This document shows positions 24 through 13,163 of a stretch of 64,000 bases of DNA, piece after piece. The position numbers were made by a program, and so were the translations under genes. The notes under the pieces are model-generated. The model was given only the letters and a program-made list of their open reading frames with translations, had not been told where the DNA came from and made no database searches. Source of the DNA: Candidatus Xenobia bacterium (lineage in GTDB: Bacteria; Vulcanimicrobiota; Xenobia; Xenobiales; QWHO01). How positions within the stretch are numbered: the stretch's first letter is position 1; the number at the start of each line of letters is the position of its first letter. Where the stretch lies: NCBI GenBank assembly GCA_045863235.1, contig BTUM01000007.1, positions 76,286-140,285 of the forward strand, in the 5' to 3' direction.

Positions 24-1763
24 ATGGTTGCAGGCCGCCAATCCGGCCCAGGTGGCCAGGGCGAGCCCGGCCCAGGTGCGGTTCATGACGACGCTTGTTC
101 TGCCCACGGTGAAAGTGGCCTTCACCAGACCCTGGCGCGGAGGGTCGACCTGGCCAGGAATTCCGGTCGCGTCGGTAAACCTGGCCGGGTGACCAGGGCG
201 CGAAGGCTACGGGAGATACTGGCGGGCAGCCAGTTGGAGTTCCTGCTGGAAGCCCACAACGCTCTCGCAGCGCGGATTGTGGAAGAGTCGGGCTTTGCCG
301 GGATCTGGGCCAGCGGATTGGCCCTTTCGTCCCAGTTTGGGGTGCGAGACTCCAATGAAGCGAGTTGGACGCAGGTGGTCGACATGGTCGAATTCATGGT
401 TGATGCCACCAGCATTCCCATCCTGCTCGACGGAGACACCGGTTACGGGAATTTCAACAATCTTCGTCGGCTCATTCGTAAGCTCGAGCAGCGCTCGGTG
501 GCCGGGGTGTGTATCGAGGACAAGCTGTTTCCCAAGAGCAACAGCCTGATGGGGGAGCACCATCAACTGTGCAGCCTGGATGAGTTCTGTGGAAAGATCA
601 AGGCGGGTAAGGACAGCCAGACAGACCCGGACTTTTGCCTGATCGCTCGAGTCGAGGCCCTGGTGGCTGGTCAGAGCCTGAGCGAGGCCCTGCTTCGTGC
701 TGAGGCGTATCGCCAGGCCGGAGCGGACGCCATCTTGATTCATTCTTGCCGGGCCCAGCCCGACGAAGTGCTTGCATTTGCTCGCGAGTGGGCCGGAAGA
801 GGCCCCCTGGTCATCGTTCCCACCCGCTACTCGAGCACCCCGGTCGAGGTGTTTCGCCGGGCCAACATTCAGCTGATCATCTGGGCCAACCATATGCTTC
901 GGGCCTCCATCGCGGCCATGCAGTCGGCTGCTGGTCGGATCAAGGCTGAGGAAAGCACCCTGCAGGTCGAGGATGAGATCGCACCACTATCGGAAGTGTT
1001 TCGACTTCAGGGTGCGGATGAGCTGGTGGCGGCTGAGAAGCTTTACCTCGGACGTCCTCTTCGGGCCGTGTTGCTGGCCGCCACTCGAGGCGAGATGAAC
1101 GGTCTGACCTCGGACAGACCCAAAGGGATGATCCCCATTGCCGGCAAGCCTCTGCTGAGTTGGACGGTGGACGCCCTCAAGGCCCTGGGGGCTCATCCCA
1201 TCACCGTGGTGGCCGGCTGGCAGCCGGACGCGGTGGATCTGCCGGGTGTGGAGCGGGTGGTGAACGATGCCCACGCCTCCAGCGGCGAATTGGGCTCGCT
1301 CGCCCAGGCCCGGGAGGCACTGAGCCACGATGTCCTGGTGCTGTACGGCGATCTGCTGCTTCGCAGCTACATCCTGCGTGAGCTTGCCGGGAGCACGGCC
1401 GAAGTCACGGTGGTGGTGGATTCCGACCTTGAGGGGCGCCGCAAGACGGGTCACCAGGACTACGCCCGCTGTGATCGGCCCGACGACCGCGGCGTCCTTC
1501 AACCCGTGGTGAGGCTCGTGGAGATCTCCGAGCGACCTCAGGAGGTCCACGGACGTTTCATCGGAGCGGCCAGCTTTCGAGCCGCCGGGGTCACCTGGCT
1601 GCGGGAGGCGCTGCTCGAGTTGCCTCCCAATCTTGGTCTGCCCGATCTCCTGAATCACCTGGTGGGGCGGGGCAATCCAGTGCGCGTGCTCTATATTCAC
1701 GGCCACTGGTTGGACGTCAATACCGTGGAGGATCTACCTCAGGCAGGCAGCTTCCTGGCATAA
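24..1763 (+). CDS. ppm: Phosphoenolpyruvate phosphomutase (N-terminal, ~300 aa) fused to a C-terminal MobA/LicC-like nucleotidyltransferase domain; likely makes and nucleotide-activates a phosphonate. True start is probably the GTG near 188.
   Basis: ICL/PEPM-superfamily sequence EAHNALAARIVEESGFAGIWASGLA...DTGYGNFNN with the PEP-mutase-specific EDKLFPKSNS (EDKX5NS). The C-terminal 250 aa begin GMIPIAGKPLLSW...VVAGWQ, typical of sugar-phosphate/phosphonate nucleotidyltransferases. Residues 1-55 are low-complexity and probably not translated. Confidence 0.8.
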   Translation: MVAGRQSGPGGQGEPGPGAVHDDACSAHGESGLHQTLARRVDLARNSGRVGKPGRVTRARRLREILAGSQLEFLLEAHNALAARIVEESGFAGIWASGLALSSQFGVRDSNEASWTQVVDMVEFMVDATSIPILLDGDTGYGNFNNLRRLIRKLEQRSVAGVCIEDKLFPKSNSLMGEHHQLCSLDEFCGKIKAGKDSQTDPDFCLIARVEALVAGQSLSEALLRAEAYRQAGADAILIHSCRAQPDEVLAFAREWAGRGPLVIVPTRYSSTPVEVFRRANIQLIIWANHMLRASIAAMQSAAGRIKAEESTLQVEDEIAPLSEVFRLQGADELVAAEKLYLGRPLRAVLLAATRGEMNGLTSDRPKGMIPIAGKPLLSWTVDALKALGAHPITVVAGWQPDAVDLPGVERVVNDAHASSGELGSLAQAREALSHDVLVLYGDLLLRSYILRELAGSTAEVTVVVDSDLEGRRKTGHQDYARCDRPDDRGVLQPVVRLVEISERPQEVHGRFIGAASFRAAGVTWLREALLELPPNLGLPDLLNHLVGRGNPVRVLYIHGHWLDVNTVEDLPQAGSFLA

Positions 1764-1817
1764 AAAAGCCCCCCGCGGAGCGGAGGGCCTTGTTGTTGAA
1801 CCGAGACCGAGCGAGTG

Positions 1818-3452
1818 TCAGCGAACGCCGATCATCAGCGCGGTTGGGAACTGCGAAGCGGCGTTGGGCCGGCCGTCCACGATTCCATGCATGACGGTCC
1901 GGTTGGGACAGAACTGACCCGAGGTGAGGTTGATCTGCAACATGTTGCCGGTGATGGTACCGTCAGCGTTGACGCTGAAACTGCCTCCCACCACCGCTCC
2001 CATGACCTCGCGGACCAGCGGGAACGGGAAGATGGGAGTAAACGTGTCAGCATACAGCTTGGTAAACTGGAGGTTGGTGATGACCCCTCCGAGCAGGTCG
2101 ACGTTGGTGATATCCATGTCGGCGAGCAGTGACCCGTCGCCGCCGCGCAGGCCTACGTAGCGGATCTGGTTGGGCAGGTCATCGTTGCTGGACGTCTCGG
2201 TGGGCAGAGGAGCAGCATAGAAGACAAACTGCTGAAAGCCGAACTGAGCAGGAGTGGCGACTGCGGTCAGCATGACGCTGCCGTCGCCGGCCATGGTGCC
2301 CGACAGGCTGAAGTCGGAGATGCCGGGAATCGTGATCGTTCCTGTCACGTCGCCGTTGACGGCCACGTTATAGGTCCCGGTCGCGGAGTTGCCCACCACG
2401 GTACCCGTGAGATTGCCGGCTCCGTCGAATACAAGGTCGCCCGCTTGAGCCCCGGAATTGGGAGTAAAGCCGATCACGCCCGAGCCAGAGACCTTGAACG
2501 GCCCGTTCAAGCTGGCGTTGCTGAGGCCTGTCTGGGCTTTCTGCAGCTTGGCCATGCCGACCATGTAGTCGGTGGTCGGAGGATCGCCTCCAAAGAAGGT
2601 GGTGTAGATGGCGTCACCTGCTGGCGTGACCGTGACTCGCCCGTCCCAATCGATGTCGGCGAGGCGATCGGTGATCATGTCGGCGTGAAAATTTCGGGCC
2701 GCGTCGATGGTGTAGGTACCGCCGGTGATGTTGTAGGTCGTGCTCAAGTAGGTAGCCGGCGGGCCGGCCAGCGTGCCAAACGGGTTGGATTTGAGGATCT
2801 GGCCCCCGGTGATGTTGCCATTGCCGTCCAGGGTCACATTGCCGCTGATGACCCCGCTGCCGACGGCGCCACTGGCGCCGGTGATGGTGTAAGCACCCAC
2901 AGCCAGGCCATTGGTGCCGGTCAGCTGGTCGAAGAAGTCAGGGTTGTTGATGGGAAAGGTTTCATTGGCAACCAGCTGGACGAACTGGGTAAAGGTTCCC
3001 ACGACGTTGGTGCCCTGGACAAACTGGACGACCAGGATGACCACGGTCGGATCGACATCTTCGATCAGGATCTGCGCCGCCAGAGGCAGGTCGGCAGTCT
3101 GGAGGAGCTGGGTTCCAGCCGCGTTGAAGCCGGTGACTCGCACGGCTGTGACCGTATTGGGGACCTGGCGGGGCTGGAGGTCGAGGTTGAGCTGGATGTC
3201 AGCCAGGTTGTTGGGTACGTTCCCCCCGTCGACGGCTCCGCCAGCGGCTGCCCCACCAGCGTTCCCTCCGGCGGCGTTCCCTCCAGCAGCGTTCCCTCCA
3301 GCGGCGTTCCCTCCGGCGGCCGCGCCACCATCATTGAACGTAAAGTCCCCCCCTGTGCCCCCACCGCTCACATCAGCGCCGCTGGTGCATCCGAAGGCGA
3401 TGAGCATCGTGAGGAAGATGAAAAGAAATGCAAATTGTCTGAGCTGAACCAA
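1818..3452 (-). CDS. Secreted lipoprotein with a (GGNAA)n low-complexity tract followed by a Gly/Thr-rich beta-rich domain; function unknown.
   Basis: TTG start at 3452 with GGAGGG 6 nt upstream. Signal peptide LRQFAFLFIFLTMLIAFGC has a lipobox (AFGC). The tract GGNAAGGNAAGGNAAGGNAGGAAAGG is encoded by 15-bp tandem repeats. The ORF part upstream of 3452 would overlap the divergent GT gene. Confidence 0.6.
   Translation of the reverse strand: MVQLRQFAFLFIFLTMLIAFGCTSGADVSGGGTGGDFTFNDGGAAAGGNAAGGNAAGGNAAGGNAGGAAAGGAVDGGNVPNNLADIQLNLDLQPRQVPNTVTAVRVTGFNAAGTQLLQTADLPLAAQILIEDVDPTVVILVVQFVQGTNVVGTFTQFVQLVANETFPINNPDFFDQLTGTNGLAVGAYTITGASGAVGSGVISGNVTLDGNGNITGGQILKSNPFGTLAGPPATYLSTTYNITGGTYTIDAARNFHADMITDRLADIDWDGRVTVTPAGDAIYTTFFGGDPPTTDYMVGMAKLQKAQTGLSNASLNGPFKVSGSGVIGFTPNSGAQAGDLVFDGAGNLTGTVVGNSATGTYNVAVNGDVTGTITIPGISDFSLSGTMAGDGSVMLTAVATPAQFGFQQFVFYAAPLPTETSSNDDLPNQIRYVGLRGGDGSLLADMDITNVDLLGGVITNLQFTKLYADTFTPIFPFPLVREVMGAVVGGSFSVNADGTITGNMLQINLTSGQFCPNRTVMHGIVDGRPNAASQFPTALMIGVR
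3258..3318. repeat. In-frame 15-bp tandem repeat (x4) inside the lipoprotein gene, encoding GGNAA units.
   Basis: cgttccctccRgcRg repeated four times. Confidence 0.8.
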
Positions 3453-3546
3453 AGTGGATCCCTCCCTTGTCGTGAAGCCGCCTGGTTCGCAGTGTGGACG
3501 GCAATCACCTGCAGGGGCCGATTCTCCCACGCCCGAACCTGGCCGG

Positions 3547-4563
3547 ATGCCGTGGCTGTTTTTCAGCAAGCTTGGCAATCCGGCCCTCGAGGAGCTGATC
3601 AGAGCCCTGCGAGGTCTGGGGCTTGCAGTCGAGGCCGTGCATCCAGGTCTCGCCTGGTCCCCCCTTTCGCGAGCGGTCCCGGTGCTGCCGGTCGGCCCTC
3701 GATGGCTTGCACAACTGCACGGGCCACTGCTCGAAGGACTGCGCCCCGAGGTCGTGGTCTACTCCTATCCTGACCAGGCACCGCTGGCGCGACGCTTCCC
3801 AGGCGCGAGCAAGGTTTACTACGTGCAAGACGATTTTCGAGCTTACAATTATCCGGACGCCCGGCTGCGAGCCTGGGAGGAAGAGCTCCTGCCGCGAATC
3901 GACTTGTTGGTGGTCGTCTCCGAGGCCCTGGCCGACTCGTATCGAGAGAGATACAAGTTTGAAGGCACGATTTTGGTTGCTCCACTGGCCGTCCCAGAGC
4001 GTTTCTTGCCGGCCGCTTGCCCCCCCCGCCTCTCTCGAGGCGGAAAAGTCGGGGTTCTCGGCCGGATCTCGAGCCGTCTGCGCCTGGGCTGGCTGCGACA
4101 GGCAGTGGAGCGGCTCAACTGGATGCGCCTCGAACTGGTTGGTGACGTGGAGGCCTCCGAGTTGATGGCCGAGGACCGCTACCACCTGCGCTACCTGCAG
4201 CAGTGCCCTCGCTGCCGGTTTTATGGTTGGAAGCCTTTCGCCCACCTGTTTGAGCGGGCTTCCCAGCTTGATCTGGCGCTCCTGCCGTACAGCCCTCGAA
4301 GTGTCAATCCCTGCGGCTCGGCCTATCGATTCTATATCCACCTTGCTTACGGGGCCCCCATGCTGGCCACCCCGGGCGTGGCTCAGCTTGAGGAGTATCA
4401 GCCTCTGGTTCAGATTTGCCGCAGCAGCGATGAGTTCTTGAGCAGGTTGGACGAGCTGGCCAGGCGGGGCTTTGATGACGGCCTCCATACGCAACGTTGG
4501 GAAGCCGCTCGGGCCAATACCTGGAGTCATCGGGCCCGGGCTCTACTGGAGGCTCTGGGGTAA
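3547..4563 (+). CDS. Putative GT-B fold glycosyltransferase (GT1/GT4-like).
   Basis: 339 aa from ATG 3547 (MPWLFFSKLG). Layout is a Rossmann-like N-terminal half and a C-terminal half (GKVGVLGRIS...ELVGDVE...LLPYSPRSVNPCGSA), as in GT4/GT1 enzymes. No signal peptide. Convergent with the minus-strand operon ending at 4585. Confidence 0.5.
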   Translation: MPWLFFSKLGNPALEELIRALRGLGLAVEAVHPGLAWSPLSRAVPVLPVGPRWLAQLHGPLLEGLRPEVVVYSYPDQAPLARRFPGASKVYYVQDDFRAYNYPDARLRAWEEELLPRIDLLVVVSEALADSYRERYKFEGTILVAPLAVPERFLPAACPPRLSRGGKVGVLGRISSRLRLGWLRQAVERLNWMRLELVGDVEASELMAEDRYHLRYLQQCPRCRFYGWKPFAHLFERASQLDLALLPYSPRSVNPCGSAYRFYIHLAYGAPMLATPGVAQLEEYQPLVQICRSSDEFLSRLDELARRGFDDGLHTQRWEAARANTWSHRARALLEALG

Positions 4564-4584
4564 GAATCGCCCGCCACCAGGACC

Positions 4585-5406
4585 TCAGGGTCGGGTCGGG
4601 AGGTCGCCCTGGCCTTGAGGGGCGCGCAGCCGCCAGGCCAGCACATCCAGCCAGCGGTGCAGCCAGTAGAATGCCCGCACCAGCGGGTCGGCAGCCATCG
4701 GGATCAGGTTGCTGACCTTGTTGCGCGTGCGCAGAAAAGGTACCGGGTCGGGCGAGCTGATGTCGAGGGCGTCCCGGGTCAAGGTAACCAGTCCGCGCTC
4801 CTGGGCATCGTAAAGCAACAGGCTCAGAAGGGCCTGCTCGAACTGGTGCACCGCCAGTCGAGCTCCCGGAGGGTTCTGGATGCAGCCATTGAGAGCCCAC
4901 TGCTTCCACCGCTCCGTCAGGGCTCGAACCCATTCGCGGCGGCCATCGAAAGCGCACACTCCGCTGGCCCGGGTGCGCAGGCGGGCCAGCTCAGGGTTCA
5001 CTCCCGTGAGCGTCAACGGCCCGGGAAGCACCCGAATGGGGCCACCCCCTCCAAACGGGGTATACACCCCCGTGCGCTCCACCTCCCGGGTGATCCGGTC
5101 GAGAGGGCCAAGTACGACGGTTGCTGAGTCCAGCCAGAGGACAGGCCCCTGATAGTGACTGACCAGGTCGGCCACGATGATAGGTTTCCAGGCGTAGGCG
5201 CCCCTTTCGAGTCGGACGTGATCCGGATATCGGTCAAAGGGAAAGACGCGCAACTCATAGCGTTCTGACAACCACCGGCGCTGTTGGGCCGTCATGCCCA
5301 GATCGTAGAGCACCAGTTGATCAGACAGGCCAGCGCGCTCGAGGCTGAGCAGGAACTGACGCAGCGACCGATAGTAGACCCGGTCAGCCCCCGAGACGAT
5401 CAGCAC
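4585..5406 (-). CDS. Putative nucleotide-diphospho-sugar (GT-A-like, DxD-type) transferase; last gene of the minus-strand operon.
   Basis: GTG start at 5406 overlaps the TGA of the upstream gene (GTGCTGA). The region VLIVSGADRVYY...YAWKPIIVADL...VLWLDSATVV resembles GT8/GT-A DxD transferases. The N-terminal 50 aa of the longer ORF call overlap the upstream gene and are rejected. Confidence 0.4.
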   Translation of the reverse strand: MLIVSGADRVYYRSLRQFLLSLERAGLSDQLVLYDLGMTAQQRRWLSERYELRVFPFDRYPDHVRLERGAYAWKPIIVADLVSHYQGPVLWLDSATVVLGPLDRITREVERTGVYTPFGGGGPIRVLPGPLTLTGVNPELARLRTRASGVCAFDGRREWVRALTERWKQWALNGCIQNPPGARLAVHQFEQALLSLLLYDAQERGLVTLTRDALDISSPDPVPFLRTRNKVSNLIPMAADPLVRAFYWLHRWLDVLAWRLRAPQGQGDLPTRP

Positions 5407-6083: not shown

Positions 6084-7867
6084 GGCAGTCGGGCCAGCTG
6101 CTGAAACTGGGGACTGGAATAGAGCAGCTCCTGGTAGGTGCCCCTGGCTCGCACCTGGCCCTCTTCCAGCAGGTAGATCTGCTCACAGGCCTGCACTGTC
6201 GTGAGTCGATGAGCGATGACCAGCAGCGTCTTGGAGTGGACCAGTTCGGCCAGGGCCTCCAGGAACCAGCGCTCGGTCTGATTGTCGAGCGCACTGGTGG
6301 CTTCGTCCAGGATTAAGAGCTCGGGCTCGTGATAGAGGGCGCGGGCGATGCCGATGCGCTGGCGCTCGCCCCCGCTCAGGGCCACTCCGCGCTCGCCCAG
6401 GACCGCGTCGTAGCCCTCGGGTCGGGCGGCGATGAATTCGTGCAGATGGGCTGCCCGGGCAGCCCGCTCGACAGCCAGCTCGTCGATCTCCTCGTCTGCC
6501 AGGCCGAGGGCGATGTTGCGACGGATCGTGTCGTCGGCCAGGTAAACCTCCTGGGGGACGTAACCGATGCATTGATGCCAACGTGTCAGGTCCTCGGGTC
6601 GCAGCGGTTGCCCGTCGACGAGCAAGGTGCCCTCTCCCGGCGTCAATAGCCCGGCCACCAGGTCGGCCACGGTGGTCTTACCCGAGCCGGTTCGACCCAC
6701 CAGGGCCACCGAGCTGTGTCGGGGAATGGTCAGGTCGAGGTCGTGCACAGCGGGAGCGACGGCCCCCGGGTAGGTGAATGCGACGCGGCGGAGCTCGATG
6801 GCTCGGGTGAAGGGCAGGGGGGGGTCCCCTTCTGCGGGCGTCAGGGGCTCGGGGTCGGCCAGCTCGCGGTAGATTTCCTCCACCAGGGGAAGCCGGAACT
6901 GCAGGTCCACCAGGTCGTCATAAAGGCACTGCAGGCACGGCACGAGCCGCCATGTGGCCATGACGTAGGCCCCCACCAGGGGAAGGGCCGCGCGACTGGC
7001 CTGGGTGATGCAGAGGTATACAAGAACGGTGACGATAGCAGCCAGGGCCAGAATTTCGGTGCAGGGCCGGGCGACCTCGCCCAGTGTCAGTCGGTGGAGG
7101 AGCAGCCTGTTCTCGCGCTCAAAGGCGCGTCGGTAGCTCTCCAGGAAGTGGCGCCTGCGAGGCAGGGCTTTGGCCTCCCGCAGGGCCGACAGACTCTCTG
7201 CCGCGATCTTTGCCCGCTGGTATCCTGCCTTGTGGCACTCGTTGCCCAATCGGTCCAGATTTCGGTTGAAAAATCGGTAGATGGCCATGAACAGCATGCT
7301 CAGGACCAGACCGGTGGTCAAAGCCACCCGATAGTCGAGCCAGAGCAGCCCGGCACAGAGAAACAGCGAGGTCATGGCTCGCATTGCCATGGTAGCCAGG
7401 GTTCGTACCACTTTGTGGACCAGCTCATCTACCTGCTGCAGTACCACCCTCGTCAACCGACTTGTGTTCTGACCAAGATGCCAGACATGCGGACGGTGAA
7501 GGTAGCGGCGCAGCAGATTGAGCGACAGGTCGGAGCTGACCTCGGTGGTCAAACGGTAGATGAACCACCAGGTCAGCGTGTTGAGAAAGCTGGTCAGAGC
7601 GAAAAGGGTCAGGAACAAGACTCCCAGCAGGGCAAAGAAGCTCTCGAAGCTGGCGCAACCCGACCAGGTGTAGAAGCGGTTCAGCGTAGCGTTCTGTTGG
7701 ACTAAATCCGGGTCGGCGGCTACTGCGAGCAGGGGCACCAGGCCGGCCACTCCCGACAATTCAGTGCTTGCGTTGACAAGGGTGCACAGGCCAAGACTGA
7801 GGGCTTTGCGGCGCGCGGCGGGAGAAAGAATGGCTCGAACCATTCGGAATGCTTCAAACACCGCCAT
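6080..7867 (-). CDS. ABC exporter, fused 6-TM permease and ATPase (MsbA/type-I exporter-like).
   Basis: Six predicted TM helices in the N-terminal half. Walker A GRTGSGKTT, ABC signature LSGGERQRIGIARAL, Walker B LLILDEATSALD. Confidence 0.85.
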   Translation of the reverse strand: MAVFEAFRMVRAILSPAARRKALSLGLCTLVNASTELSGVAGLVPLLAVAADPDLVQQNATLNRFYTWSGCASFESFFALLGVLFLTLFALTSFLNTLTWWFIYRLTTEVSSDLSLNLLRRYLHRPHVWHLGQNTSRLTRVVLQQVDELVHKVVRTLATMAMRAMTSLFLCAGLLWLDYRVALTTGLVLSMLFMAIYRFFNRNLDRLGNECHKAGYQRAKIAAESLSALREAKALPRRRHFLESYRRAFERENRLLLHRLTLGEVARPCTEILALAAIVTVLVYLCITQASRAALPLVGAYVMATWRLVPCLQCLYDDLVDLQFRLPLVEEIYRELADPEPLTPAEGDPPLPFTRAIELRRVAFTYPGAVAPAVHDLDLTIPRHSSVALVGRTGSGKTTVADLVAGLLTPGEGTLLVDGQPLRPEDLTRWHQCIGYVPQEVYLADDTIRRNIALGLADEEIDELAVERAARAAHLHEFIAARPEGYDAVLGERGVALSGGERQRIGIARALYHEPELLILDEATSALDNQTERWFLEALAELVHSKTLLVIAHRLTTVQACEQIYLLEEGQVRARGTYQELLYSSPQFQQLARLP

Positions 7868-7908
7868 GATCGCGCGAGGTTCGACGCGGAAGGGGCGATT
7901 CCGCCTCG

Positions 7909-8514
7909 TCAGTTTCGCTGGCGGACGAAGTAGCCCGTGGCCCGGTCACGCACGGCGTCCGAGCCCAGGTATCCATAGTGGTGCTCGAGCAGCTCCCGGG
8001 GCCGGGCAGGTAGCCACGTTTCCTGGCCCAGGAAGGTTGCGCTCTGCAAGGGGAAAACGAACTCGTCGGGAATCTTGGAGCGCTCGCCCGGAAAGGTGCC
8101 TCGCTCGAGGGGGAGGAGCCAGCTCTGCTCGGCTCGGTAGAAATAGAGGTCGGCTTCCCATCCGTCCCACTCGACGTAGAGCTTGGGGCCGAGGTGTCGC
8201 GCGCTGGTGTCCTGGAGCCGAAAGCCCGGCGGAAGACGAGAAGCGGCCTTCTTCACACGGGTGTAGTCCGACTCACGCAGTCCGAAGTCGACATCCACGT
8301 CGCCTCTGATGATCTGGCCTTCTCGATGCTGGCCGAGCAGAGTGCCGAAGGCCAGCCAGTAGTCCACCCCCGTCTCGCGCAGGAAGGCGTTGGTGGTGAC
8401 GAACAGTCGGCCCAGCTGCCGGGCCACCGCCTCACGGTGGCTTGCCCCGAGCAGGAGGGGGTTGTAGCGGACGTGGCGCCAGAGCAGCCTGGCGGTTCGT
8501 GGCAGCCTGATCAT
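7909..8514 (-). CDS. LicD-family phosphotransferase (transfers a phosphocholine or phosphonate head group from a CDP/CMP-activated donor to a glycan).
   Basis: YWLAFGTLLGQHREGQIIRGDVDVDFGL matches the LicD GTLLGAxR...DDDID core. Size is 201 aa. Its start ATG overlaps the stop of the PhyH gene (ATGA). Confidence 0.7.
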   Translation of the reverse strand: MIRLPRTARLLWRHVRYNPLLLGASHREAVARQLGRLFVTTNAFLRETGVDYWLAFGTLLGQHREGQIIRGDVDVDFGLRESDYTRVKKAASRLPPGFRLQDTSARHLGPKLYVEWDGWEADLYFYRAEQSWLLPLERGTFPGERSKIPDEFVFPLQSATFLGQETWLPARPRELLEHHYGYLGSDAVRDRATGYFVRQRN

Positions 8515-9290
8515 ACCCGGTAGCGATAGGTCCTGCCCGGCTCGCGCTCGCAGTCAGGAGGATAGCTCTTGCGCTTGGCAGCAAAGTATTCTTCGCGCCG
8601 ATCCCCCTCGCGACGCAGGCCGTAGGTGATGTACAGGATGCGCCGTGCCTGCGAGCTGTCGTTGGGACCCGACCGGTGGGGCACGAACGAGTCGAAGAAG
8701 ATGGTATCTCCCGGGGCCGCTTCCAGAGGCTGAAACTCGAGCCCCAACTCGCTCAGGGGCTCGTGCATCGGCCCGAGCAATCCTTCGCGGTGGCGCCCCG
8801 GGACGACTTCCAGGCAACCATTGCCCGGGGTGGCTCGATCGATGGCCACCATGGCCGTCAGGTGGATCGAGCCCCAGGCGTCCCAACCGGCCTGAACGTC
8901 CTGGTGGGGGGCAAAGCCGTCCCCTCCGGGAAGCTTGAAGTTCAACTTGTCCTTAAACAAGACCAGGCTCTCGCCCATGAGTTGCTCGGCGGTTTCGAGC
9001 AGCGCGCCCGTGCAGAGCTCCCGCAGATCGGGGTGGTAGGGAAGGAAGTTTTCGGCCCGGCAGAGCAAGCGTTGGTGGGGAATTCTTCGGTGAGGCTCGT
9101 AGTAGAGCATCCATTTGCCCTGGGTCTCGGGCCAGCTCTCCAACTCACCCACCCACTCTCGCAGAGGCTCGGCAGGCAAGAATCCGCTCAGGTGAAGGTA
9201 GCCGTCTCGTCGGTAATGCTCGACCTGATCAGGGGTCAGACTCACGGCTGGAGGTTTGACGCGCCTGGGCATTTCCTGCCAGGCGCTCAT
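8511..9290 (-). CDS. PhyH-family Fe(II)/2-oxoglutarate dioxygenase (PhnY*-like hydroxylase class).
   Basis: HxD...H...R arrangement: FAPHQDVQAGW and later FFDSFVPHRSGPNDSSQARR. About 250 aa. The start codon is uncertain because the first 60 nt overlap the PAP2 gene 3' end. Confidence 0.7.
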   Translation of the reverse strand: MSAWQEMPRRVKPPAVSLTPDQVEHYRRDGYLHLSGFLPAEPLREWVGELESWPETQGKWMLYYEPHRRIPHQRLLCRAENFLPYHPDLRELCTGALLETAEQLMGESLVLFKDKLNFKLPGGDGFAPHQDVQAGWDAWGSIHLTAMVAIDRATPGNGCLEVVPGRHREGLLGPMHEPLSELGLEFQPLEAAPGDTIFFDSFVPHRSGPNDSSQARRILYITYGLRREGDRREEYFAAKRKSYPPDCEREPGRTYRYRV

Positions 9291-10098
9291 AGAGCCCGGG
9301 TCCTACCAGGGCCCAGCCCAGAGCTACCGCCCAGCCAGCTGGCACGTCCACCAGGTAGTGGAATCGCGCGTAAACCGTGGCGAAAGCAATCGAGAGAGCG
9401 ATGAAGAGATAAAGACCGGTCAGGCCCGAGCGGGCACGCCAGGCGGCCAGCGCAGCGGCGGTGGACCAGGCGACATGACTTGAAGGAAAGGCGGCGCCGT
9501 CGACGGCTCCGTGATCGACCAGGCGATGGCACATATGCCAGAAGAAGCCCTGGCAGGCCGGCTCGAGGGCTGGCCAGAGCGGACGGGGACCCTGCACCGG
9601 AAAGAAGACTGCCACGAGATAGCAGGAGTAGAGCGTGGCCAGGCCCGTGAAAGTGGCCTGCTCGGCCGCTCCGGGGCGGCCCAGTTGGCGCAACCTCAGG
9701 GTCAGCAACGGGAGCAGAAGGTAGTAAAGCAGATAGCAGAGGTGCAGCCATTCGGAGAGCAGTCGATAGGGGAGCACCTGGCTCAGCCAGGCCGCCGGAG
9801 AGGCTCCAAAGAGCCGGGTCTCCCAGGCCAGCACGGTGGCGTCGTAATAAACCCCTGACAGGATGCGGTTCTGGATCTCTAATTCGCTGTACATGGGGAT
9901 CAGGAGGAAGAAGGGGTAGAGTCGGACCAGTCCGCCGCCAAGACGCGGGATCAGCCAGATGACCGCCAGGTGCCACAGGATACGGAGCGTGAGCTCTGCG
10001 GTGCTATGCCCGGCCGGCGGGTGGAACAGGCCCAGGGCCAGAAAGCCGGCAGTCAGGGCCAGGTAGGCCCGCACCAGCAGATCGACCGGATCGCTCAT
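9229..10098 (-). CDS. PAP2-superfamily membrane phosphatase/phosphotransferase (lipid phosphate phosphatase or sphingomyelin-synthase-like fold).
   Basis: Five or six TM segments. PAP2 motifs PSSHVAWS (C2) and SRFHYLVDV (C3: SRxxxxxHxxxD). The start ATG overlaps the upstream stop (ATGA). Confidence 0.65.
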   Translation of the reverse strand: MSDPVDLLVRAYLALTAGFLALGLFHPPAGHSTAELTLRILWHLAVIWLIPRLGGGLVRLYPFFLLIPMYSELEIQNRILSGVYYDATVLAWETRLFGASPAAWLSQVLPYRLLSEWLHLCYLLYYLLLPLLTLRLRQLGRPGAAEQATFTGLATLYSCYLVAVFFPVQGPRPLWPALEPACQGFFWHMCHRLVDHGAVDGAAFPSSHVAWSTAAALAAWRARSGLTGLYLFIALSIAFATVYARFHYLVDVPAGWAVALGWALVGPGLYERLAGNAQARQTSSRESDP

Positions 10099-11132
10099 CG
10101 CTTTCGCACCAGGAAGAAGGGGTCGTGGACGATTCGGCGGGCATCGATGAGGACCAGGTCATCCTCCACCACCAGATGGTGCAGCCCGTCGGGATAGGGC
10201 CAGCACTTCCGGGGAGAGAGCCGCAGCACGGGCTTCTCGTGAAAGGTCTCTGGAGTCAGCTCGAGCACCTCGTTGATCACTACGGCGTCGCCATAGCTCG
10301 AGGAGCAATCCTGGGCCGGGCGATAGAGGCGGCCGTCGAGCCGAAAAGGCTTGCCGGCCGAGCGCGTGGAGCGGATGTCCTGTTTGAGCGGGCTCTGAGC
10401 ATGGGGCTGAAAAGGGCCCAGCGGGGTCGCTGCAAAGGCAGCTTTGAGCCGGTAAGCGCCATGCCGGCTGGGACCGGTGTAGAGCAGCCACCAGCGGCCT
10501 TGATGCTCGAACAACACCGGATCCACGACTTGCGCGTCCTCGAGCAGAACCCGTTCCAGGATCAGGCCGTCTTGCACCCGATAGAGCTTGAGTCGCTGCT
10601 CGGCCAGGCTCTCCGGCAGGCAGTAGAGCTGGTCGTTCCAGGTGAGCAGGTAGGGGAATGAATGGTGCGAGCCTTCCAGGCGGGGAATGCGCTGGTTGTT
10701 CTCCGTAATCTCGACCAGTCGGGCCGGCCTTCCGTGACGGTGCTCCTCGACCATCAGGTGCCAGGCGTGATCTTGTCGGAAAGCGAAGGGGTCGGCCTCA
10801 TAGGTGAGCGGAGCGAGCTCGGGGCGCCAGGCCCACTTGAGGTGAGGGAGCTCGGAGAGGCTCTGAAGGCGATGGAGGGCGTAGCCAACTGCCCAGATGT
10901 CGTAAGTGAAAGCTTCGCGATAGAGATACTCGAGCCCGCGTCGTGCCTCGAACAGGGCTGTGAGGAATCGCTGGGGCCAGCTGATTCGAGCCGCCGGTTG
11001 AGCTCGGTGGAACTGCCCGGCCGCGCGCCGCAGAGTGCCCTGGTAGCTCCAGTGGGGGCGGAACCAGGCCTCGAACCCGTCCTCGCGCACGACCTTGATG
11101 GGCTTTCGTCGCCAGTACTCTTGAATGGTCAC
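10095..11132 (-). CDS. Hypothetical protein, predicted beta-rich (propeller or glycoside-hydrolase-like) fold; function unknown.
   Basis: GTG start at 11132 overlaps the GNAT gene stop (GTGA). No TM segment or signal peptide. The N-terminal 37 aa of the longer ORF call overlap the upstream gene and are rejected. Confidence 0.45.
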   Translation of the reverse strand: MTIQEYWRRKPIKVVREDGFEAWFRPHWSYQGTLRRAAGQFHRAQPAARISWPQRFLTALFEARRGLEYLYREAFTYDIWAVGYALHRLQSLSELPHLKWAWRPELAPLTYEADPFAFRQDHAWHLMVEEHRHGRPARLVEITENNQRIPRLEGSHHSFPYLLTWNDQLYCLPESLAEQRLKLYRVQDGLILERVLLEDAQVVDPVLFEHQGRWWLLYTGPSRHGAYRLKAAFAATPLGPFQPHAQSPLKQDIRSTRSAGKPFRLDGRLYRPAQDCSSSYGDAVVINEVLELTPETFHEKPVLRLSPRKCWPYPDGLHHLVVEDDLVLIDARRIVHDPFFLVRKR

Positions 11133-12196
11133 GCCCGCTCCAGCAGGCGGTAGGTCTTCTCGCGCCGAGCTCCCAGGGCGTTCAGCATGGCCTGCATGGG
11201 GCGGTTGTCGGCCAGCACCCAGGAAGCCTCCAGTCGCTCCCACGGGATGCGCGCGTCCAGTTTTACCAGCGCCTCGATCATGGCCCCAGCTACGTCAAGC
11301 TGTCGAGCCTCGCGCACGATCCCGATGGCATAGGCTCGATAGTTGCGGATCCAGCTGCGGCGCGTGAGGTAGTCGTAGAGAAGGCGAAGGGTCAATCGTC
11401 CCTGGCTTCGGGTCAGCATGGGGTTGAGATCGGGCAGGGTGATGAGAGCGCCCACCGTGGCGCCCTGATGCTCGGCGAACAGCACGGTCTCCGGGCGGAT
11501 CAAGAGCAAGCTGAGGACCACGAACTCCCGCATCATGGGCTCGTCGAATTCTTCGAAGCCCCAGTTGTCGGCCAGCGCGTTGTTGAAGACACTTGCCAGC
11601 CTGCGGGTGTCGCGAACCCGGTGCCAGGGATCCATGGATCGCACCGTCACCCCCTGCTCGGCCGCCCGGCGGGCCCGGCCTCGCATCAGGTCTTGCCTGA
11701 CCTCGCCCCGCTGGAAGCTGTAGGTATGCATCTCCTGCAGACTGCGAAAGCCGGCTTGCTCGAGCAACTCGGCGTAGTAGGGTGGGTGGTAGGCCAGCAA
11801 GAAGCTAGGCGGGGTGTCGAAGCCATCGACCAGCAGGCCCGGGTAGGGGTCCTCCTGGCGAAAATGGTAGGGGCCCCGCAGGGGCAGTCCGGGAAAAGTC
11901 TCGCAGGCCTGCTTGAAGAGTTCGTTCAGAGCCTGGTGCTGCCCCGGCAGGCACTCCAGAAAGCCGAAGTGGAGAGCTTGCTGATGGCGCTTGACGCCCA
12001 GGTGAGCCACCGGCTCGCCGTTATGCCAGGCCACGTAGAAGGCGCGCTCGGGGTCGTCGAGCCCACCCATCAGCTGTCGGTAGTGCTGCCAGAGCGGAGG
12101 CACCCAGGCCGGATGGCGGCCCGGGTAGATGGCTCGCGCGAGGCTCCAGAAAGCCAGACGCTCGCGCTCGGTGCGCACGCGGGTGATGCTCGTCAA
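11129..12196 (-). CDS. GNAT-like acyl/acetyltransferase with an extended N-terminal domain (putative).
   Basis: C-terminal VGALITLPDLNP...AIGIVREARQLDVAGAMIEALV fits the GNAT acyl-CoA-binding core. 355 aa. Confidence 0.45.
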   Translation of the reverse strand: MTSITRVRTERERLAFWSLARAIYPGRHPAWVPPLWQHYRQLMGGLDDPERAFYVAWHNGEPVAHLGVKRHQQALHFGFLECLPGQHQALNELFKQACETFPGLPLRGPYHFRQEDPYPGLLVDGFDTPPSFLLAYHPPYYAELLEQAGFRSLQEMHTYSFQRGEVRQDLMRGRARRAAEQGVTVRSMDPWHRVRDTRRLASVFNNALADNWGFEEFDEPMMREFVVLSLLLIRPETVLFAEHQGATVGALITLPDLNPMLTRSQGRLTLRLLYDYLTRRSWIRNYRAYAIGIVREARQLDVAGAMIEALVKLDARIPWERLEASWVLADNRPMQAMLNALGARREKTYRLLERA

Positions 12197-12233
12197 GGCC
12201 AGGTTTGTTCTGAACCGGCCGGGATGGGCCCTC

Positions 12234-13163
12234 TCAGGCCGAGCGGGTCAAGGGCTCCAATCGACGCATGTAGCGGGCCAGGGTCTGGATGGTGGGACCG
12301 TAGCCCTTGTGATAGATCGCGTACTCGAGCTCGTAGCCAAGCTTGCCGGCGCTCTCGAGCCGCTCGTTCGGATCGGGGGCCAGGCAACGATCGAGGGTTG
12401 CGGCCAGCATCGGGGTCAGGCCCGGGGGACTGCTCAGCCGGGTGCTCAGAAGCCGGGTGAGGGTTTCGCTCAAGCTCTCTCCCTCCACCAGGAAGGGATT
12501 CCGGCCCGTCAACAGCTCGTAGTAGACGACACCCAGGCTGAAGAGGTCGCTGCGACCGTCGGTGACCTGGCAGCTGGCCTGCTCGGGCGCCATGTACTCT
12601 ACCCGGCCATAGACCTGCTCGCCTTCTTTTGACTCGAGGTAGTGGGCCGCCTTGGCCACCCCGAAGTCTGCCAGCTTGACCTCGCCTTCGCCGGAAATCA
12701 GGATATTGTTGGGCGACACGTCACGATGGACCAGACCCAGGGGCTGGCCCTGCTCGTCGGTGCGCTCGTGAGCATACTCCAGGGCCCGGGCCAGCCGGCT
12801 GACGATGAAGGTGGCCAGCTCGACCGGCACGGTCTTTCCAGCGTGCAGATCGAGAAAGTGCCTCAGGCTCATCCCCTCGATCAGCTCCATGGCGATATAG
12901 GCTCCAAAGTCCGCCCGGCCCAGCTGGTAAATTTGCACGATGTTGGGGTGGATCAGGTTGGCCACCAGACGAGCTTCCCCCACGAACATCTGGCTGAACT
13001 CGCTCGACTCGCTCAACCAGGGGTGCAACACCTTGAGGGCAACCCGCTTGGAGAAGCCGTCGGCTCCCAGTTGCTGAGCCTCGTAAACGGTGCCCATGCC
13101 TCCCGAAGCGAGCTCGCGGATGATCCGGTAGCGAGTTTCTTGAACGAAATACTGAGGAGTCAC
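12234..13163 (-). CDS. Hanks-type Ser/Thr protein kinase, kinase domain only.
   Basis: GxGxxGxV loop (LASGGMGTVYEA), VAIK-like ALKVL, catalytic HRDVSPNNILI, DFGVAK, APE (MAPEQ). No sensor or TM domain. First gene of the minus-strand operon. Confidence 0.85.
   Translation of the reverse strand: MTPQYFVQETRYRIIRELASGGMGTVYEAQQLGADGFSKRVALKVLHPWLSESSEFSQMFVGEARLVANLIHPNIVQIYQLGRADFGAYIAMELIEGMSLRHFLDLHAGKTVPVELATFIVSRLARALEYAHERTDEQGQPLGLVHRDVSPNNILISGEGEVKLADFGVAKAAHYLESKEGEQVYGRVEYMAPEQASCQVTDGRSDLFSLGVVYYELLTGRNPFLVEGESLSETLTRLLSTRLSSPPGLTPMLAATLDRCLAPDPNERLESAGKLGYELEYAIYHKGYGPTIQTLARYMRRLEPLTRSA

Follow-up and report, generated by a model that had tools for sequence, protein, structure and literature searches.

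A PEP mutase-linked gene cluster of Candidatus Xenobia with a predicted role in phosphonolipid synthesis

The window analysed here, a 64 kb stretch of DNA (64% GC) from the uncultured soil-type bacterium Candidatus Xenobia (Eremiobacterota), contains a gene cluster of an already known type, a phosphonyl-tailoring or phosphonolipid cluster. Its product is predicted to be a phosphonolipid, a membrane lipid whose head group is a phosphonate, with a probability that we put at about 0.5, and the lipid acceptor is possibly a sphingolipid or a glycolipid. Missing from the locus are Ppd and the 2-aminoethylphosphonate (AEP) transaminase (AEPT), the pair of enzymes by which the phosphonate is normally completed. 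We infer the product, the acceptor and the phosphonopyruvate-consuming step from sequence comparisons with other loci, which are designated below by L-numbers. All 13 genes of the locus were confirmed to be present (Table 1), and each of those named in a preliminary description of this DNA lies where it had been placed or within a few codons. As dN/dS is 0.04–0.24 across all of the genes, each being kept in relatives, these are real genes and not chance open reading frames in a 64% GC sequence. The gene set had been put forward as undescribed, and indeed we found no published description of it in the literature searched.

Table 1. Genes of the locus, with their coordinates in the window and the basis of each assignment.
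Gene product	Coordinates	Strand	Basis
PEP phosphomutase with C-terminal MobA-like nucleotidyltransferase domain (Ppm-NTase; PepM)	24..1763	+	Pfam, TIGR02320
Secreted or lipoprotein-like protein with GGNAA repeats; accessory	1818..3452	-	Translation
Divergent GT-B-like (GT4-like) protein, weak assignment; accessory	3547..4563	+	Glyco_transf_4, sub-threshold
DUF1647 protein, last gene of the operon; accessory	4585..5406	-	Pfam DUF1647 E 7e-8
PntC-type cytidylyltransferase (NTase2)	5400..6083	-	NTP_transf_3 E 3.5e-18
Half-size ABC exporter, fused membrane and ATPase domains, MsbA/PglK/HepA-like	6080..7867	-	ABC_membrane and ABC_tran
Short LicD-family phosphotransferase, 201 aa	7909..8514	-	LicD 41.7 bits
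Fe(II)/2-oxoglutarate dioxygenase, PhyH family, PhnY*-like	8511..9290	-	PhyH E 5.9e-24
PAP2_3 membrane phosphotransferase or phosphatase	9229..10098	-	PAP2_3 E 4.2e-15
GINT1_N five-bladed beta-propeller protein, 345 aa	10095..11132	-	GINT1_N E 1.8e-28
N-acyltransferase, bacterial ceramide synthase (bCerS) family	11129..12196	-	Homologues and neighbourhood; weak GNAT hit
Hanks-type Ser/Thr kinase, catalytic domain only, first gene of the operon	12234..13163	-	Pkinase E 2.9e-40
GT28 glycosyl-diacylglycerol synthase-like glycosyltransferase	13246..14391	+	MGDG_synth E 9e-21 and Glyco_tran_28_C

Profile and motif matches identify PepM as a genuine PEP mutase with a fused nucleotidyltransferase, in agreement with the preliminary description. 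It passes the cut-off of the PEP mutase equivalog TIGR02320 (367.5 bits against 319.6), carries the EDKLFPKSNS motif, contains the Pfam domains PEP_mutase (E 4e-58) and NTP_transf_3 (E 4.8e-13) and matches the Mytilus PEP mutase (PDB entry 1M1B; E 2e-113). Its start is either ATG 24 or GTG 189, and relatives show no sequence that aligns with the initial ~134 nt of the window. The gene is under purifying selection (dN/dS of 0.12 against L001 and L002, 0.12–0.17 overall). The fusion is not unusual, since a PF12804 domain is found fused to about 33% of Ppm enzymes (PMC6697681).

PepM is convergent with the nine-gene minus-strand operon, lying on the opposite strand, and is not co-transcribed with it. 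This arrangement would suit a reading in which PepM is an unrelated neighbour and the operon builds a phosphonate-free lipid head group such as phosphoethanolamine, phosphocholine or inositol phosphate. The linkage is indeed not obligate, as L091 has an STK–GINT1_N–AKR module without PepM; pairs of bCerS-like and PAP2_3 genes also occur with CDP-alcohol transferases and inositol-1-P synthase, and without PepM, in L083, L084 and L096, and an NTase–CobD-like fusion in L002 could provide CDP-ethanolamine-type donors. We nevertheless consider this reading quite improbable. PepM adjoins the operon in L001, L002, L087/L088 and L097, a single GT4 gene separating the two in L001, L087 and L097, and in L089 a 71% identical PepM adjoins GINT1_N and GT28. 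As had been proposed, the second NTase, LicD and the PhyH dioxygenase are tied to PepM physically and evolutionarily, being adjacent in L001, L087 and L097, and the characters of NTase2 and of the dioxygenase also argue against a phosphonate-free head group.

NTase2 had been called LicC-like, but its best solved relative is the PntC of Treponema denticola Tde1415 (6PD1; E 6.2e-34, residues 7–219), the match to LicC (E 1e-11) being more than 20 orders of magnitude weaker. NTase2 keeps the residue equivalent to Tde Glu104, and Tde1415 PntC is AEP-specific (PMC6697681). The LicD match of the short transferase (cut-off 22.6 bits) is confined to the N-terminal part of the profile (60 of 227 positions); the protein has a DVDVD motif and matches the catalytic domain of FKRP (E 6e-4). 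The short and long LicD genes match the Mf1 cholinephosphotransferase family NF045866 weakly (E 1e-5 and 2e-10, respectively; cut-off 225 bits). For the dioxygenase, the best family match is PhnY*, the methylphosphonate hydroxylase (NF052437; E 2.6e-58, 197.5 bits, below the cut-off of 500), and other characterised PhyH enzymes match far more weakly (E 1e-6 to 1e-9). Its product has H129-x-D131 and H205, and orthologues 49–51% identical to it lie beside PepM in five other lineages (L058, L079, L080, L098 and L145), of which L098 and L145 also carry Ppd and L098 also AEPT. These matches lend support to the earlier idea of a hydroxylated phosphonate and make the gene a candidate hydroxylase of the phosphonate α-carbon.

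The preliminary description had raised the question of whether ppd and an AEP transaminase gene are situated just upstream of position 1. Neither is found in the 64 kb window, nor in the relatives with 91–93% identical PepM, for which up to 10 kb upstream of that gene was covered; there, this region holds LicD, Stealth, a decayed NTase–decarboxylase gene and Omp85. Ppd is present in 128 of 160 PepM–NTase loci, directly downstream of PepM in the loci examined, and missing throughout the Xenobia group (the window, L001, L002, L087/L088, L089 and L097), in which PepM is nonetheless under purifying selection. Because Ppd and AEPT are absent from the locus, the head group might not be AEP but a direct derivative of phosphonopyruvate placed on a lipid or a glycan: phosphonolactate (through a reductase), phosphonoalanine, phosphonoacetate (through oxidative decarboxylation by PhyH) or CMP-phosphonopyruvate (through the fused NTase). 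The selection on PepM is consistent with such a route, as are the aldo-keto reductase gene overlapping the start of PepM by 4 nt in L089, the fusion of an NTase to a CobD-like decarboxylase in L002 (an FrbH-like architecture) and the absence of all known early enzymes from about 13% of ppm neighbourhoods (PMC8942020). However, the window has no aldo-keto reductase, the NTase–decarboxylase fusion is dispensable, being internally deleted and frameshifted in L001, L087 and L088, and the PhyH orthologues occur in ordinary Ppd-containing clusters. With an AEP-specific PntC as the closest relative of NTase2, and with ppd and aept possibly located elsewhere in the genome, we regard such a direct derivative of phosphonopyruvate as distinctly unlikely.

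The nine genes of the operon are tightly coupled. Four junctions (bCerS/GINT1_N, GINT1_N/PAP2, PhyH/LicD and ABC/NTase2) are 4-nt ATGA/GTGA overlaps, PAP2 and PhyH overlap by 62 nt and NTase2 and DUF1647 by 7 nt, and the remaining two junctions are gaps of 37 and 41 nt; this layout is that of a translationally coupled operon. A core of bCerS-like, PAP2_3, GINT1_N, PhyH, LicD and NTase2 genes is retained in L001 and L087, both without the ABC exporter, DUF1647 and the weak glycosyltransferase.

Several genes of the locus point to a lipid. The acyltransferase, previously described as GNAT-like, does give a weak GNAT hit, but its family is that of bacterial ceramide synthase, with about 1400 homologues of 355–380 aa. 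Along its entire length it shows 30–31% identity (E 2e-36) to proteins of L085 and L086 whose genes are neighbours of Spt, ACP, CerR-like epimerase and AMP-binding enzyme (acyl-ACP synthetase) genes, and it is 41–51% identical to proteins of PKS-Spt/ACP/KR/PAP2_3 clusters (L081–L083, L095 and L096). The assignment is to the family, and draws on 30% identity and gene neighbourhood. The PAP2_3 protein, with PSSH and HYLVDV motifs, is 44 and 40% identical to those of L084 and L083, the genes of which adjoin bCerS-like, CDP-OH_P_transf, Spt-like and inositol-1-P synthase genes, and is a candidate for moving the head group onto ceramide or another lipid. The protein first noted simply as beta-rich is so, and can now be assigned to the GINT1_N family: its true start is GTG 11132 (the open reading frame had been listed to 11243), its orthologues measure 337–348 aa, and its propeller (AlphaFold2 model, pLDDT 94) matches GH117, GH43 and GH130 in Foldseek, a glycoside-hydrolase-like fold which suggests that a sugar is involved. 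Across L089 and L091, GINT1_N is linked to MGDG_synth, kinase and PepM genes. The ABC exporter is an accessory gene, present in L002; it best matches MsbA (297.6 bits), followed by HepA and PglK, all below their NCBIfam cut-offs, and is a candidate lipid flippase. The GT28 gene, transcribed divergently from the operon, has diglucosyl diacylglycerol synthase as its best NCBIfam match (E 2.3e-49, below cut-off) and keeps its place beside GINT1_N in L087, L089 and L091. A surface glycan had been proposed as an acceptor; the bCerS and PAP2_3 pair, which recurs in sphingolipid clusters, together with GINT1_N, the MsbA-like flippase and the diglucosyl-DAG-synthase-like GT28, makes a membrane lipid the more likely one. 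A lipid cluster elsewhere (L094) unites PhyH, GINT1_N, DUF1647 and an ABC exporter with four CDP-alcohol phosphatidyltransferases, a CdsA-like enzyme and a DAG-kinase-like enzyme, with no PepM in the 20 kb examined.

LicD enzymes classically decorate glycans, and the family membership and FKRP match of the LicD protein would fit a phosphonoglycan, in which LicD moves CMP-AEP onto a sugar, whether this belongs to a surface polysaccharide, to an LPS-like molecule or to a lipid-linked oligosaccharide. Assembly and export of the glycan would then fall to the glycosyltransferases, Stealth and a PglK-like ABC flippase, the bCerS-like and PAP2_3 genes being unrelated or accessory in role. The PepM transcription unit of relatives does include a Stealth sugar-phosphate transferase and a second LicD (these and GT4 are co-directional with PepM in L001, L002 and L087), the exporter also matches PglK and HepA, the GINT1_N propeller resembles glycoside hydrolases, and clusters with PntC and LicD have been tied to cell-wall glycans (Rice et al., PMC6697681). 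Yet the operons of L001 and L087 drop the exporter, DUF1647 and the weak glycosyltransferase and keep the bCerS-like and PAP2_3 genes, which overlap their neighbours by 4 nt and are found in sphingolipid clusters elsewhere; moreover, among the genes of the locus we saw neither Wzx/Wzy nor a polyprenyl-phosphate glycosyltransferase, nor any sugar-nucleotide gene. A glycan acceptor is unlikely in our view.

The kinase is 96% identical in L087 and 72% in L091, where it also precedes GINT1_N. DUF1647 probably starts at GTG 5406 (273 aa); it had been described as GT-A-like, and DUF1647 is its sole match. It is 40% identical to the DUF1647 gene adjoining GINT1_N in L094. The GT-B-like gene (Glyco_transf_4, 25.5 bits against a cut-off of 28.5; likely start ATG 3547) is 80% identical in L002, with a dN/dS of 0.14. 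Between it and PepM sits a gene that the preliminary description had not listed; it starts at TTG 3452, with AAGGGAGG just before, and encodes the GGNAA-repeat protein, with a hydrophobic leader that has a Cys at its end and no Pfam or NCBIfam family hit. This gene is found only in the window and in L002 (89% identical, dN/dS 0.09), and is missing from L001 and L087.

In the phosphonolipid pathway that we favour, PepM would make phosphonopyruvate, which would be converted to AEP by enzymes outside the locus, either through Ppd and AEPT from another part of the genome or through an unknown route. The PhnY*-like enzyme would hydroxylate C-1. Phosphonolipids with 1-hydroxy-AEP are predicted for clusters that combine lipid genes and a 2OG oxygenase with both a Ppm–PntC fusion and a second PntC, and 1-hydroxy-AEP sphingophosphonolipids are known from Bacteriovorax stolpii (PMC8942020). 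PntC and/or the fused NTase would then form the CMP-phosphonate, and LicD would transfer the phosphonate to a hydroxyl of a glycolipid or diacylglycerol. PAP2_3 would subsequently move the head group to a ceramide-like lipid built with the bCerS-family enzyme, a step modelled on IPC synthase and sphingomyelin synthase. Where present, the ABC exporter would flip the product to the membrane's outer face.

The GGPL pathway of Mycoplasma fermentans pairs a glucosyl-DAG synthase with the LicD-family cholinephosphotransferase Mf1. The window shares with it a glycosyl-DAG synthase paired with a LicD-family transferase that would pass a CDP/CMP-activated head group to a glycolipid, but its NF045866 matches are far below cut-off, its donor would be a phosphonate and it has many extra genes. 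With the bacterial sphingolipid clusters, whether Caulobacter-type (Spt–ACP–CerR–bCerS) or PKS-derived (PMC11087976, PMC11334938, PMC12134224), it has in common the bCerS-family N-acyltransferase (30–51% identical) and the associated PAP2_3 (40–44% identical). Unlike them, it lacks Spt, ACP, ketoreductase and CerR throughout its 64 kb (and in the relatives, Spt, ACP and ceramide reductase are likewise absent from the stretch of up to 10 kb that lies upstream of PepM), and it links a PEP mutase to its head-group genes, an association seen in none of the sphingolipid clusters examined. The Pnt clusters with PntC and LicD of the oral anaerobes T. denticola (Tde1415), Atopobium rimae and Olsenella uli (Rice et al., 2019; PMC6697681) share the PntC-like NTase2 (E 6e-34 to the Tde1415 domain), the logic of CMP activation and a LicD-like transferase with glycosyltransferases nearby; they are thought to decorate glycans and encode Ppd and AEPT (fused to PntC in Tde1415), whereas the window lacks both and has sphingolipid-type genes. 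Finally, the 'Burkholderiales_CDP-OH' phosphonolipid family, which corresponds to the Group 1 phosphonolipids of Yu et al. (2013) (Li & Horsman, 2022; PMC8942020), has in common with the window a Ppm–PF12804 cytidylyltransferase fusion, a second stand-alone PntC, an Fe/2OG oxygenase (with a predicted 1-hydroxy phosphonate) and membrane-lipid head-group genes. It differs in having Ppd and AEPT next to Ppm, a CDP-alcohol phosphatidyltransferase, LPG_synthase_TM-type genes and a HalD/2OG-FeII_Oxy_3-type oxygenase, in place of which the window has LicD, PAP2_3, the bCerS-family enzyme, GINT1_N, a PhyH-type oxygenase and the kinase.

The window has a GC content of about 64%, at which long spurious ORFs are common; genes were chosen by third-position GC content, family searches and conservation in related loci. 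All the genes listed in the preliminary description proved to be real, with family matches and dN/dS values of 0.04-0.24 against relatives. The overlapping junctions claimed for the nine-gene operon were borne out at six of the eight junctions, four as ATGA/GTGA overlaps and two as overlaps of 62 and 7 nt, the remaining two being gaps of 37 and 41 nt. The GTGA count includes the start of the GINT1_N gene, which orthologue lengths place at GTG 11132 (345 aa), so that an apparent overlap of 115 nt becomes a GTGA overlap. Two genes lie between the operon and the gene for the PEP phosphomutase–nucleotidyltransferase fusion (PepM). The product of the first has no Pfam or NCBIfam match, but is 89% identical to its counterpart in the related locus L002 and is under purifying selection. 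The second, previously described as a GT-B glycosyltransferase, is a genuine gene, although its GT4 assignment is weak. Finally, it should be noted that the comparison loci L001 and L097, otherwise 91-93% identical, show no alignable counterpart of the window's first ~134 nt, which contain the ATG at position 24. This leaves some doubt about the true start of PepM (ATG 24 or GTG 189) and about which genes precede the window.

Features of the probable phosphonate locus and of the genes that follow it, in window coordinates
Feature	Coordinates	Strand	Remarks
PepM, PEP phosphomutase fused to a nucleotidyltransferase	24-1763	+	PEP_mutase, then NTP_transf_3
Secreted/lipoprotein-like protein, 544 aa	1818-3452	-	GGNAA repeat run after leader peptide; absent from the preliminary list
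GT4-like gene (weak)	3547-4563	+	Pfam scores under the gathering score
Nine-gene operon	13163 to 4585	-	In order: Ser/Thr kinase, weakly GNAT-like protein, GINT1_N, PAP2_3, PhyH, LicD, ABC exporter, NTP_transf_3, DUF1647
NTase2, stand-alone cytidylyltransferase (NTP_transf_3)	5400-6083	-	Operon gene
bCerS-like (weakly GNAT-like) gene	11129-12196	-	Operon gene
GT28 gene	13246-14391	+	MGDG synthase-like; divergent from the operon
YidD–Peptidase_C11 protein, 825 aa	14462-16939	-	Unusual fusion
BrxD, then overlapping DEXH-box helicase gene	23729-27165

The two last entries of the table lie beyond the locus. The 825-residue protein has a YidD domain (membrane-protein insertion efficiency factor) at its N terminus and a clostripain-like Peptidase_C11 domain at its C terminus. 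Its gene is missing at the matching position of L087, where an esterase gene directly follows GT28. BrxD exceeds the cut-off of the NCBIfam BREX_BrxD equivalog (465 versus 350 bits), and together with the helicase it appears to belong to a BREX-related defence module; in L087 a BrxC_BrxD gene is found at the corresponding place.

PepM contains a PEP_mutase domain (Pfam, E = 4e-58) followed by an NTP_transf_3 domain (E = 4.8e-13). As evidence of a PEP mutase we took an equivalog match above the curated cut-off that also beats phosphonopyruvate hydrolase and methylisocitrate lyase. PepM scores 367.5 bits with the PEP-mutase equivalog TIGR02320 (cut-off 319.55), better than with the two other families; with the phosphonopyruvate hydrolase model it reaches 229 bits, under the cut-off of 374. 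It matches the Mytilus mutase structure 1M1B with an E value of 2e-113. The catalytic motif EDKXXXXXNS, as defined in PMC6697681, is present as EDKLFPKSNS, in agreement with the identification as a true mutase in the preliminary description. With a dN/dS of 0.12-0.17, PepM is under purifying selection. Its fusion to a nucleotidyltransferase is a common architecture, 33% of Ppm enzymes being fused to PF12804 (PMC6697681).

The two nucleotidyltransferases of the locus differ in their affinities. We assigned a protein to PntC when it has the PF12804 fold and is nearer to the PntC of Treponema denticola Tde1415, an AEP-preferring cytidylyltransferase (PMC6697681), than to the phosphocholine enzyme LicC. 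NTase2 has this fold, and among solved structures it is nearest to the PntC domain of Tde1415 (6PD1), which it matches over its whole length with an E value of 6.2e-34, compared with 1e-11 for LicC (1JYK). It had been described as a LicC-like nucleotidyltransferase; a PntC-like cytidylyltransferase is now predicted. Two glutamates of Tde-PntC, Glu104 and Glu196, contact the AEP amine (PMC6697681). The equivalent of Glu104 is kept in NTase2 (LLLES), and Glu196 aligns to a serine beside a seven-residue alignment gap. The domain fused to PepM is more divergent than NTase2: it gave no 6PD1 match at 1e-5 or better and was not assigned to PntC, its best matches being sugar-1-phosphate nucleotidyltransferases and LicC (~1e-6 to 1e-7).

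The assignment of the 201-residue LicD protein to its family is upheld by a PF04991 score of 41.7 bits (gathering score 22.6), covering only profile positions 2-60 of 227, and by an acidic DxD-type motif, DVDVD; the catalytic domain of FKRP is matched with an E value of 6e-4. The best family match of the PhyH enzyme is NF052437, the methylphosphonate hydroxylase PhnY* of Gimesia (E = 2.6e-58), compared with 1e-6 to 1e-9 for other characterized PhyH enzymes. With 197.5 bits against a cut-off of 500, no equivalog-level match to NF052437 is reached, and the enzyme is a relative rather than an equivalog. Its Fe(II) facial triad is present (H129-x-D131 and H205). Orthologues with 49-51% identity are found beside PepM in five unrelated lineages (L058, L079, L080, L098 and L145); Ppd also occurs in two of these five loci, one of which has AEPT too. 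A further orthologue lies in the lipid cluster L094, in which PepM is not visible, and might point to an acyl-CoA or lipid 2-hydroxylase. The PhnY* match and the five PepM-adjacent orthologues outweigh this reading, which we keep as a minor possibility.

The organism can be placed from the closest proteins. The GINT1_N protein of the window is identical at 344 of 345 positions to a protein from a 'Candidatus Xenobia bacterium' MAG, whereas an exact-sequence search with the PepM protein had no match; the window thus represents a closely similar but separate assembly. The remaining close homologues that bear a name are from MAGs of Eremiobacterota and, in one case, from a MAG labelled Armatimonadetes. 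The source is therefore most likely a Xenobia member (Eremiobacterota). We set aside the 'uncultured Burkholderiales' label of L001 and L002. In the genome and metagenome collections, the close relatives of the locus are L001 (PepM 91% identical), L002 (78%), L087, L088 and L097 (93%). In L001, L087 and L097 one strand carries a long LicD, Stealth, PepM–NTase and GT4, and the other carries NTase2, the short LicD, PhyH, PAP2_3, GINT1_N, the bCerS-like gene and the kinase, with GT28 next; the phosphonate gene and the operon thus directly adjoin. The lipoprotein, weak glycosyltransferase, DUF1647 and ABC exporter genes constitute an insert that is confined to the window and L002, which marks them as accessory. 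In the more distant L089 (PepM 71% identical) GT28, GINT1_N, an aldo-keto reductase and PepM–NTase are consecutive, and in L091, which has no PepM, the order is GT28, a gene of no assigned family, the kinase, GINT1_N and the same aldo-keto reductase.

Several operon genes point to lipid chemistry. The 'GNAT-like acyltransferase' of the preliminary description is still predicted to be an acyltransferase, but its similarity to GNAT is weak. Its full-length homologues, 355-380 residues long, number about 1400. Those of L085 and L086 are 30-31% identical to it (E = 2e-36) over residues 4/9-354 of 355 (about 97-99% of the protein) and adjoin Spt, ACP, a CerR-like epimerase and an AMP-binding/acyl-ACP-synthetase-like enzyme, a neighbourhood that corresponds to the canonical bacterial ceramide cluster (PMC11087976, PMC11334938). 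Closer homologues, with 41-51% identity, are present in L083 and L096, and partial versions of such clusters in L081, L082 and L095, the last from an Eremiobacterota MAG. L083 (1090-9380) and L096 (5779-14115) share the order KS-DH-aminotransferase PKS fusion, ACP, bCerS-like protein, ketoreductase, LPG_synthase_TM, PAP2_3 and CDP-OH_P_transf. This appears to be a PKS-type sphingolipid pathway of uncultured bacteria, complete with head-group genes, and resembles the described PKS-derived sphingolipid pathway (PMC12134224). Because its homologues sit in ceramide and PKS sphingolipid clusters, we assign the protein, from sequence, to the bCerS family. No NCBIfam model matched it, and neither Spt, ACP nor CerR was found in the 64-kb window by tblastn (E up to 1) or by a Pfam scan of essentially all large ORFs; co-localization of bCerS with Spt and CerR is not obligatory (PMC11334938). 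Searches of solved-structure sequences were uninformative for the bCerS-like, PAP2 and DUF1647 proteins.

The PAP2_3 domain scores 56.5 bits (cut-off 27) and contains the catalytic motifs PSSH and HYLVDV, which place it with IPC/sphingomyelin-synthase-like proteins; the phosphoinositol dihydroceramide synthase model NF052609 gives a weak match (E = 6e-5). Identity to the PAP2_3 proteins of L084 and L083 is 44 and 40%, respectively, and in L084 the gene adjoins those for inositol-1-phosphate synthase, a CDP-alcohol transferase and an Spt-like protein. The GINT1_N protein had been listed as a beta-rich hypothetical protein. Its AlphaFold2 model (pLDDT 94) retains the beta structure but reveals a five-bladed propeller of the GINT1_N family that resembles GH117, GH43 and GH130 enzymes. 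Among NCBIfam models the ABC exporter is nearest to MsbA, HepA and PglK, and GT28 to diglucosyl-diacylglycerol synthase. L094 shares PhyH (48% identity), GINT1_N (42%), DUF1647 (40%) and the ABC exporter (30%) with the window, and also holds four CDP-alcohol phosphatidyltransferases together with CdsA-like, DAG-kinase-like and KS/KR/ACP genes. The linkage of GINT1_N and the kinase to GT28 is conserved, which suggests that they serve in a glycolipid step and in regulating it. A fusion of a Ser/Thr kinase with a cyclic-nucleotide-binding domain lies a few kilobases from PepM in L052 (4873-6192) and in about 20 other loci (for example L012, L028, L035 and L127-L130). These fusions, in ordinary Ppd-containing phosphonolipid clusters, are 35-39% identical to the operon kinase, which suggests that phosphonolipid loci are repeatedly accompanied by a kinase.

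The preliminary description had asked whether ppd and the gene for an AEP transaminase immediately precede the window. At the corresponding place in L001, L087 and L097 there is neither; the genes upstream of PepM encode Stealth, the long LicD, a third NTase, Omp85 and ThrE. Searches by tblastn with representative sequences (E up to 1) gave no Ppd or AEPT in the window, L001, L002 or L097, and scanning the remainder of the window with Pfam revealed no TPP enzyme or suitable aminotransferase. Nor did these four loci yield CDP-OH_P_transf, LPG_synthase_TM or a HalD-type oxygenase (tblastn with E up to 1, and the Pfam scan of essentially all large window ORFs), or any homologue of a neighbour that could pull the mutase equilibrium (Ppd, PalB-, FrbC- or VlpB-type). 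Of the PepM–NTase loci at large, 69 of 80 genomic and 59 of 80 metagenomic ones (128/160) carry Ppd, directly downstream of PepM in the loci examined, and 54 and 40, respectively, carry AEPT. The Ppd-bearing loci correspond to the known 'CDP-OH' phosphonolipid family, and about 13% of ppm neighbourhoods have no known early-branch gene (PMC8942020); the Xenobia loci belong to this 13%.

Two leads to another route were followed. In L002 (1974-3755, minus strand) a 594-residue fusion of NTP_transf_3 with a CobD-like domain (threonine/serine-phosphate decarboxylase), of FrbH-like architecture, lies upstream of the LicD–Stealth–PepM unit and could in principle provide CMP-AEP independently of Ppd in the manner of FrbH. 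Only remnants of it are left in the relatives whose PepM is 91% identical, at L001 (5867-6849), L087 (18338-19320) and L088 (13050-14032), which have lost residues ~187-428 and carry a frameshift. Since the gene has decayed there while PepM stays under selection, the fusion cannot be the general answer. In L089 (6152-8739), with no Ppd nearby, the aldo-keto reductase gene overlaps the start of PepM–NTase by 4 nt, and its product is possibly a phosphonopyruvate or phosphonoacetaldehyde reductase; the window has no such gene. With no early enzymes and both leads failing, the phosphonopyruvate-consuming step would be encoded elsewhere or follow a route not yet known.

From the gene and family assignments, which are sequence evidence, we infer each step of the following scheme. 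PepM would supply phosphonopyruvate, which would be converted to AEP, a choice favoured by the resemblance of NTase2 to PntC and of the PhyH enzyme to PhnY*. The PhyH enzyme would hydroxylate C-1, and the PntC-like enzyme and/or the fused NTase would form the CMP-phosphonate. LicD could then move the phosphonate onto a hydroxyl of glycosyl-DAG or DAG, and PAP2_3 could hand the head group to a ceramide-like lipid that received its N-acyl chain from the bCerS-family enzyme, a step modelled on clusters in which this PAP2_3 and bCerS pairing usually acts alongside a CDP-alcohol transferase. Where present, the MsbA-like exporter would flip the product. We give a probability of about one half to the locus being a phosphonolipid pathway, and within this reading a sphingolipid anchor and a glycoglycerolipid anchor are roughly equally likely. 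It seems rather unlikely that PAP2_3 functions as a ceramide aminoethylphosphonate synthase together with PntC, LicD and a bCerS paralogue dedicated to this task, as a first blueprint for a phosphonate head group on a bacterial sphingolipid, and that Xenobia makes its phosphonate without Ppd and AEPT. If true, the latter implies an undescribed phosphonopyruvate-consuming enzyme or route.

Some bacteria, protists and marine invertebrates contain phosphonolipids and sphingophosphonolipids in abundance, and these lipids add to the marine pool of C-P compounds. In the literature searched we found no enzyme named for the attachment of a phosphonate head group to ceramide and no gene assigned to head-group attachment in bacterial sphingophosphonolipids. 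A PEP mutase and PntC beside bCerS-family and IPC-synthase-like PAP2 enzymes provide a short, directly testable list of candidates. The locus is moreover a clean example of ppm neighbourhoods without known early-branch enzymes, and the purifying selection on PepM makes it a good place to seek a novel mechanism that pulls the mutase equilibrium. It would also extend phosphonate and sphingolipid-type lipid chemistry to the Eremiobacterota, a phylum with few cultured members.

Among the closest known systems is the 'Burkholderiales_CDP-OH' cluster, whose core comprises seven genes: Ppm-PntC, a second PntC, Ppd, AEPT, a 2OG oxygenase and two phospholipid genes. For clusters in which two PntCs occur with an oxygenase and lipid genes, 1-hydroxy-AEP phosphonolipids are the predicted product (PMC8942020). 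The window shares Ppm-PntC and the second PntC and has an oxygenase of another family, but lacks Ppd, AEPT, CDP-OH_P_transf and LPG_synthase_TM, and hence the complete core. As the preliminary description had maintained, we found no description of this gene set in the literature searched. What is new compared with the known clusters is the consistent absence of Ppd and AEPT, the host phylum Eremiobacterota, and the replacement of the CDP-alcohol transferase genes by those for LicD, PAP2_3, a bCerS-family enzyme and GINT1_N.
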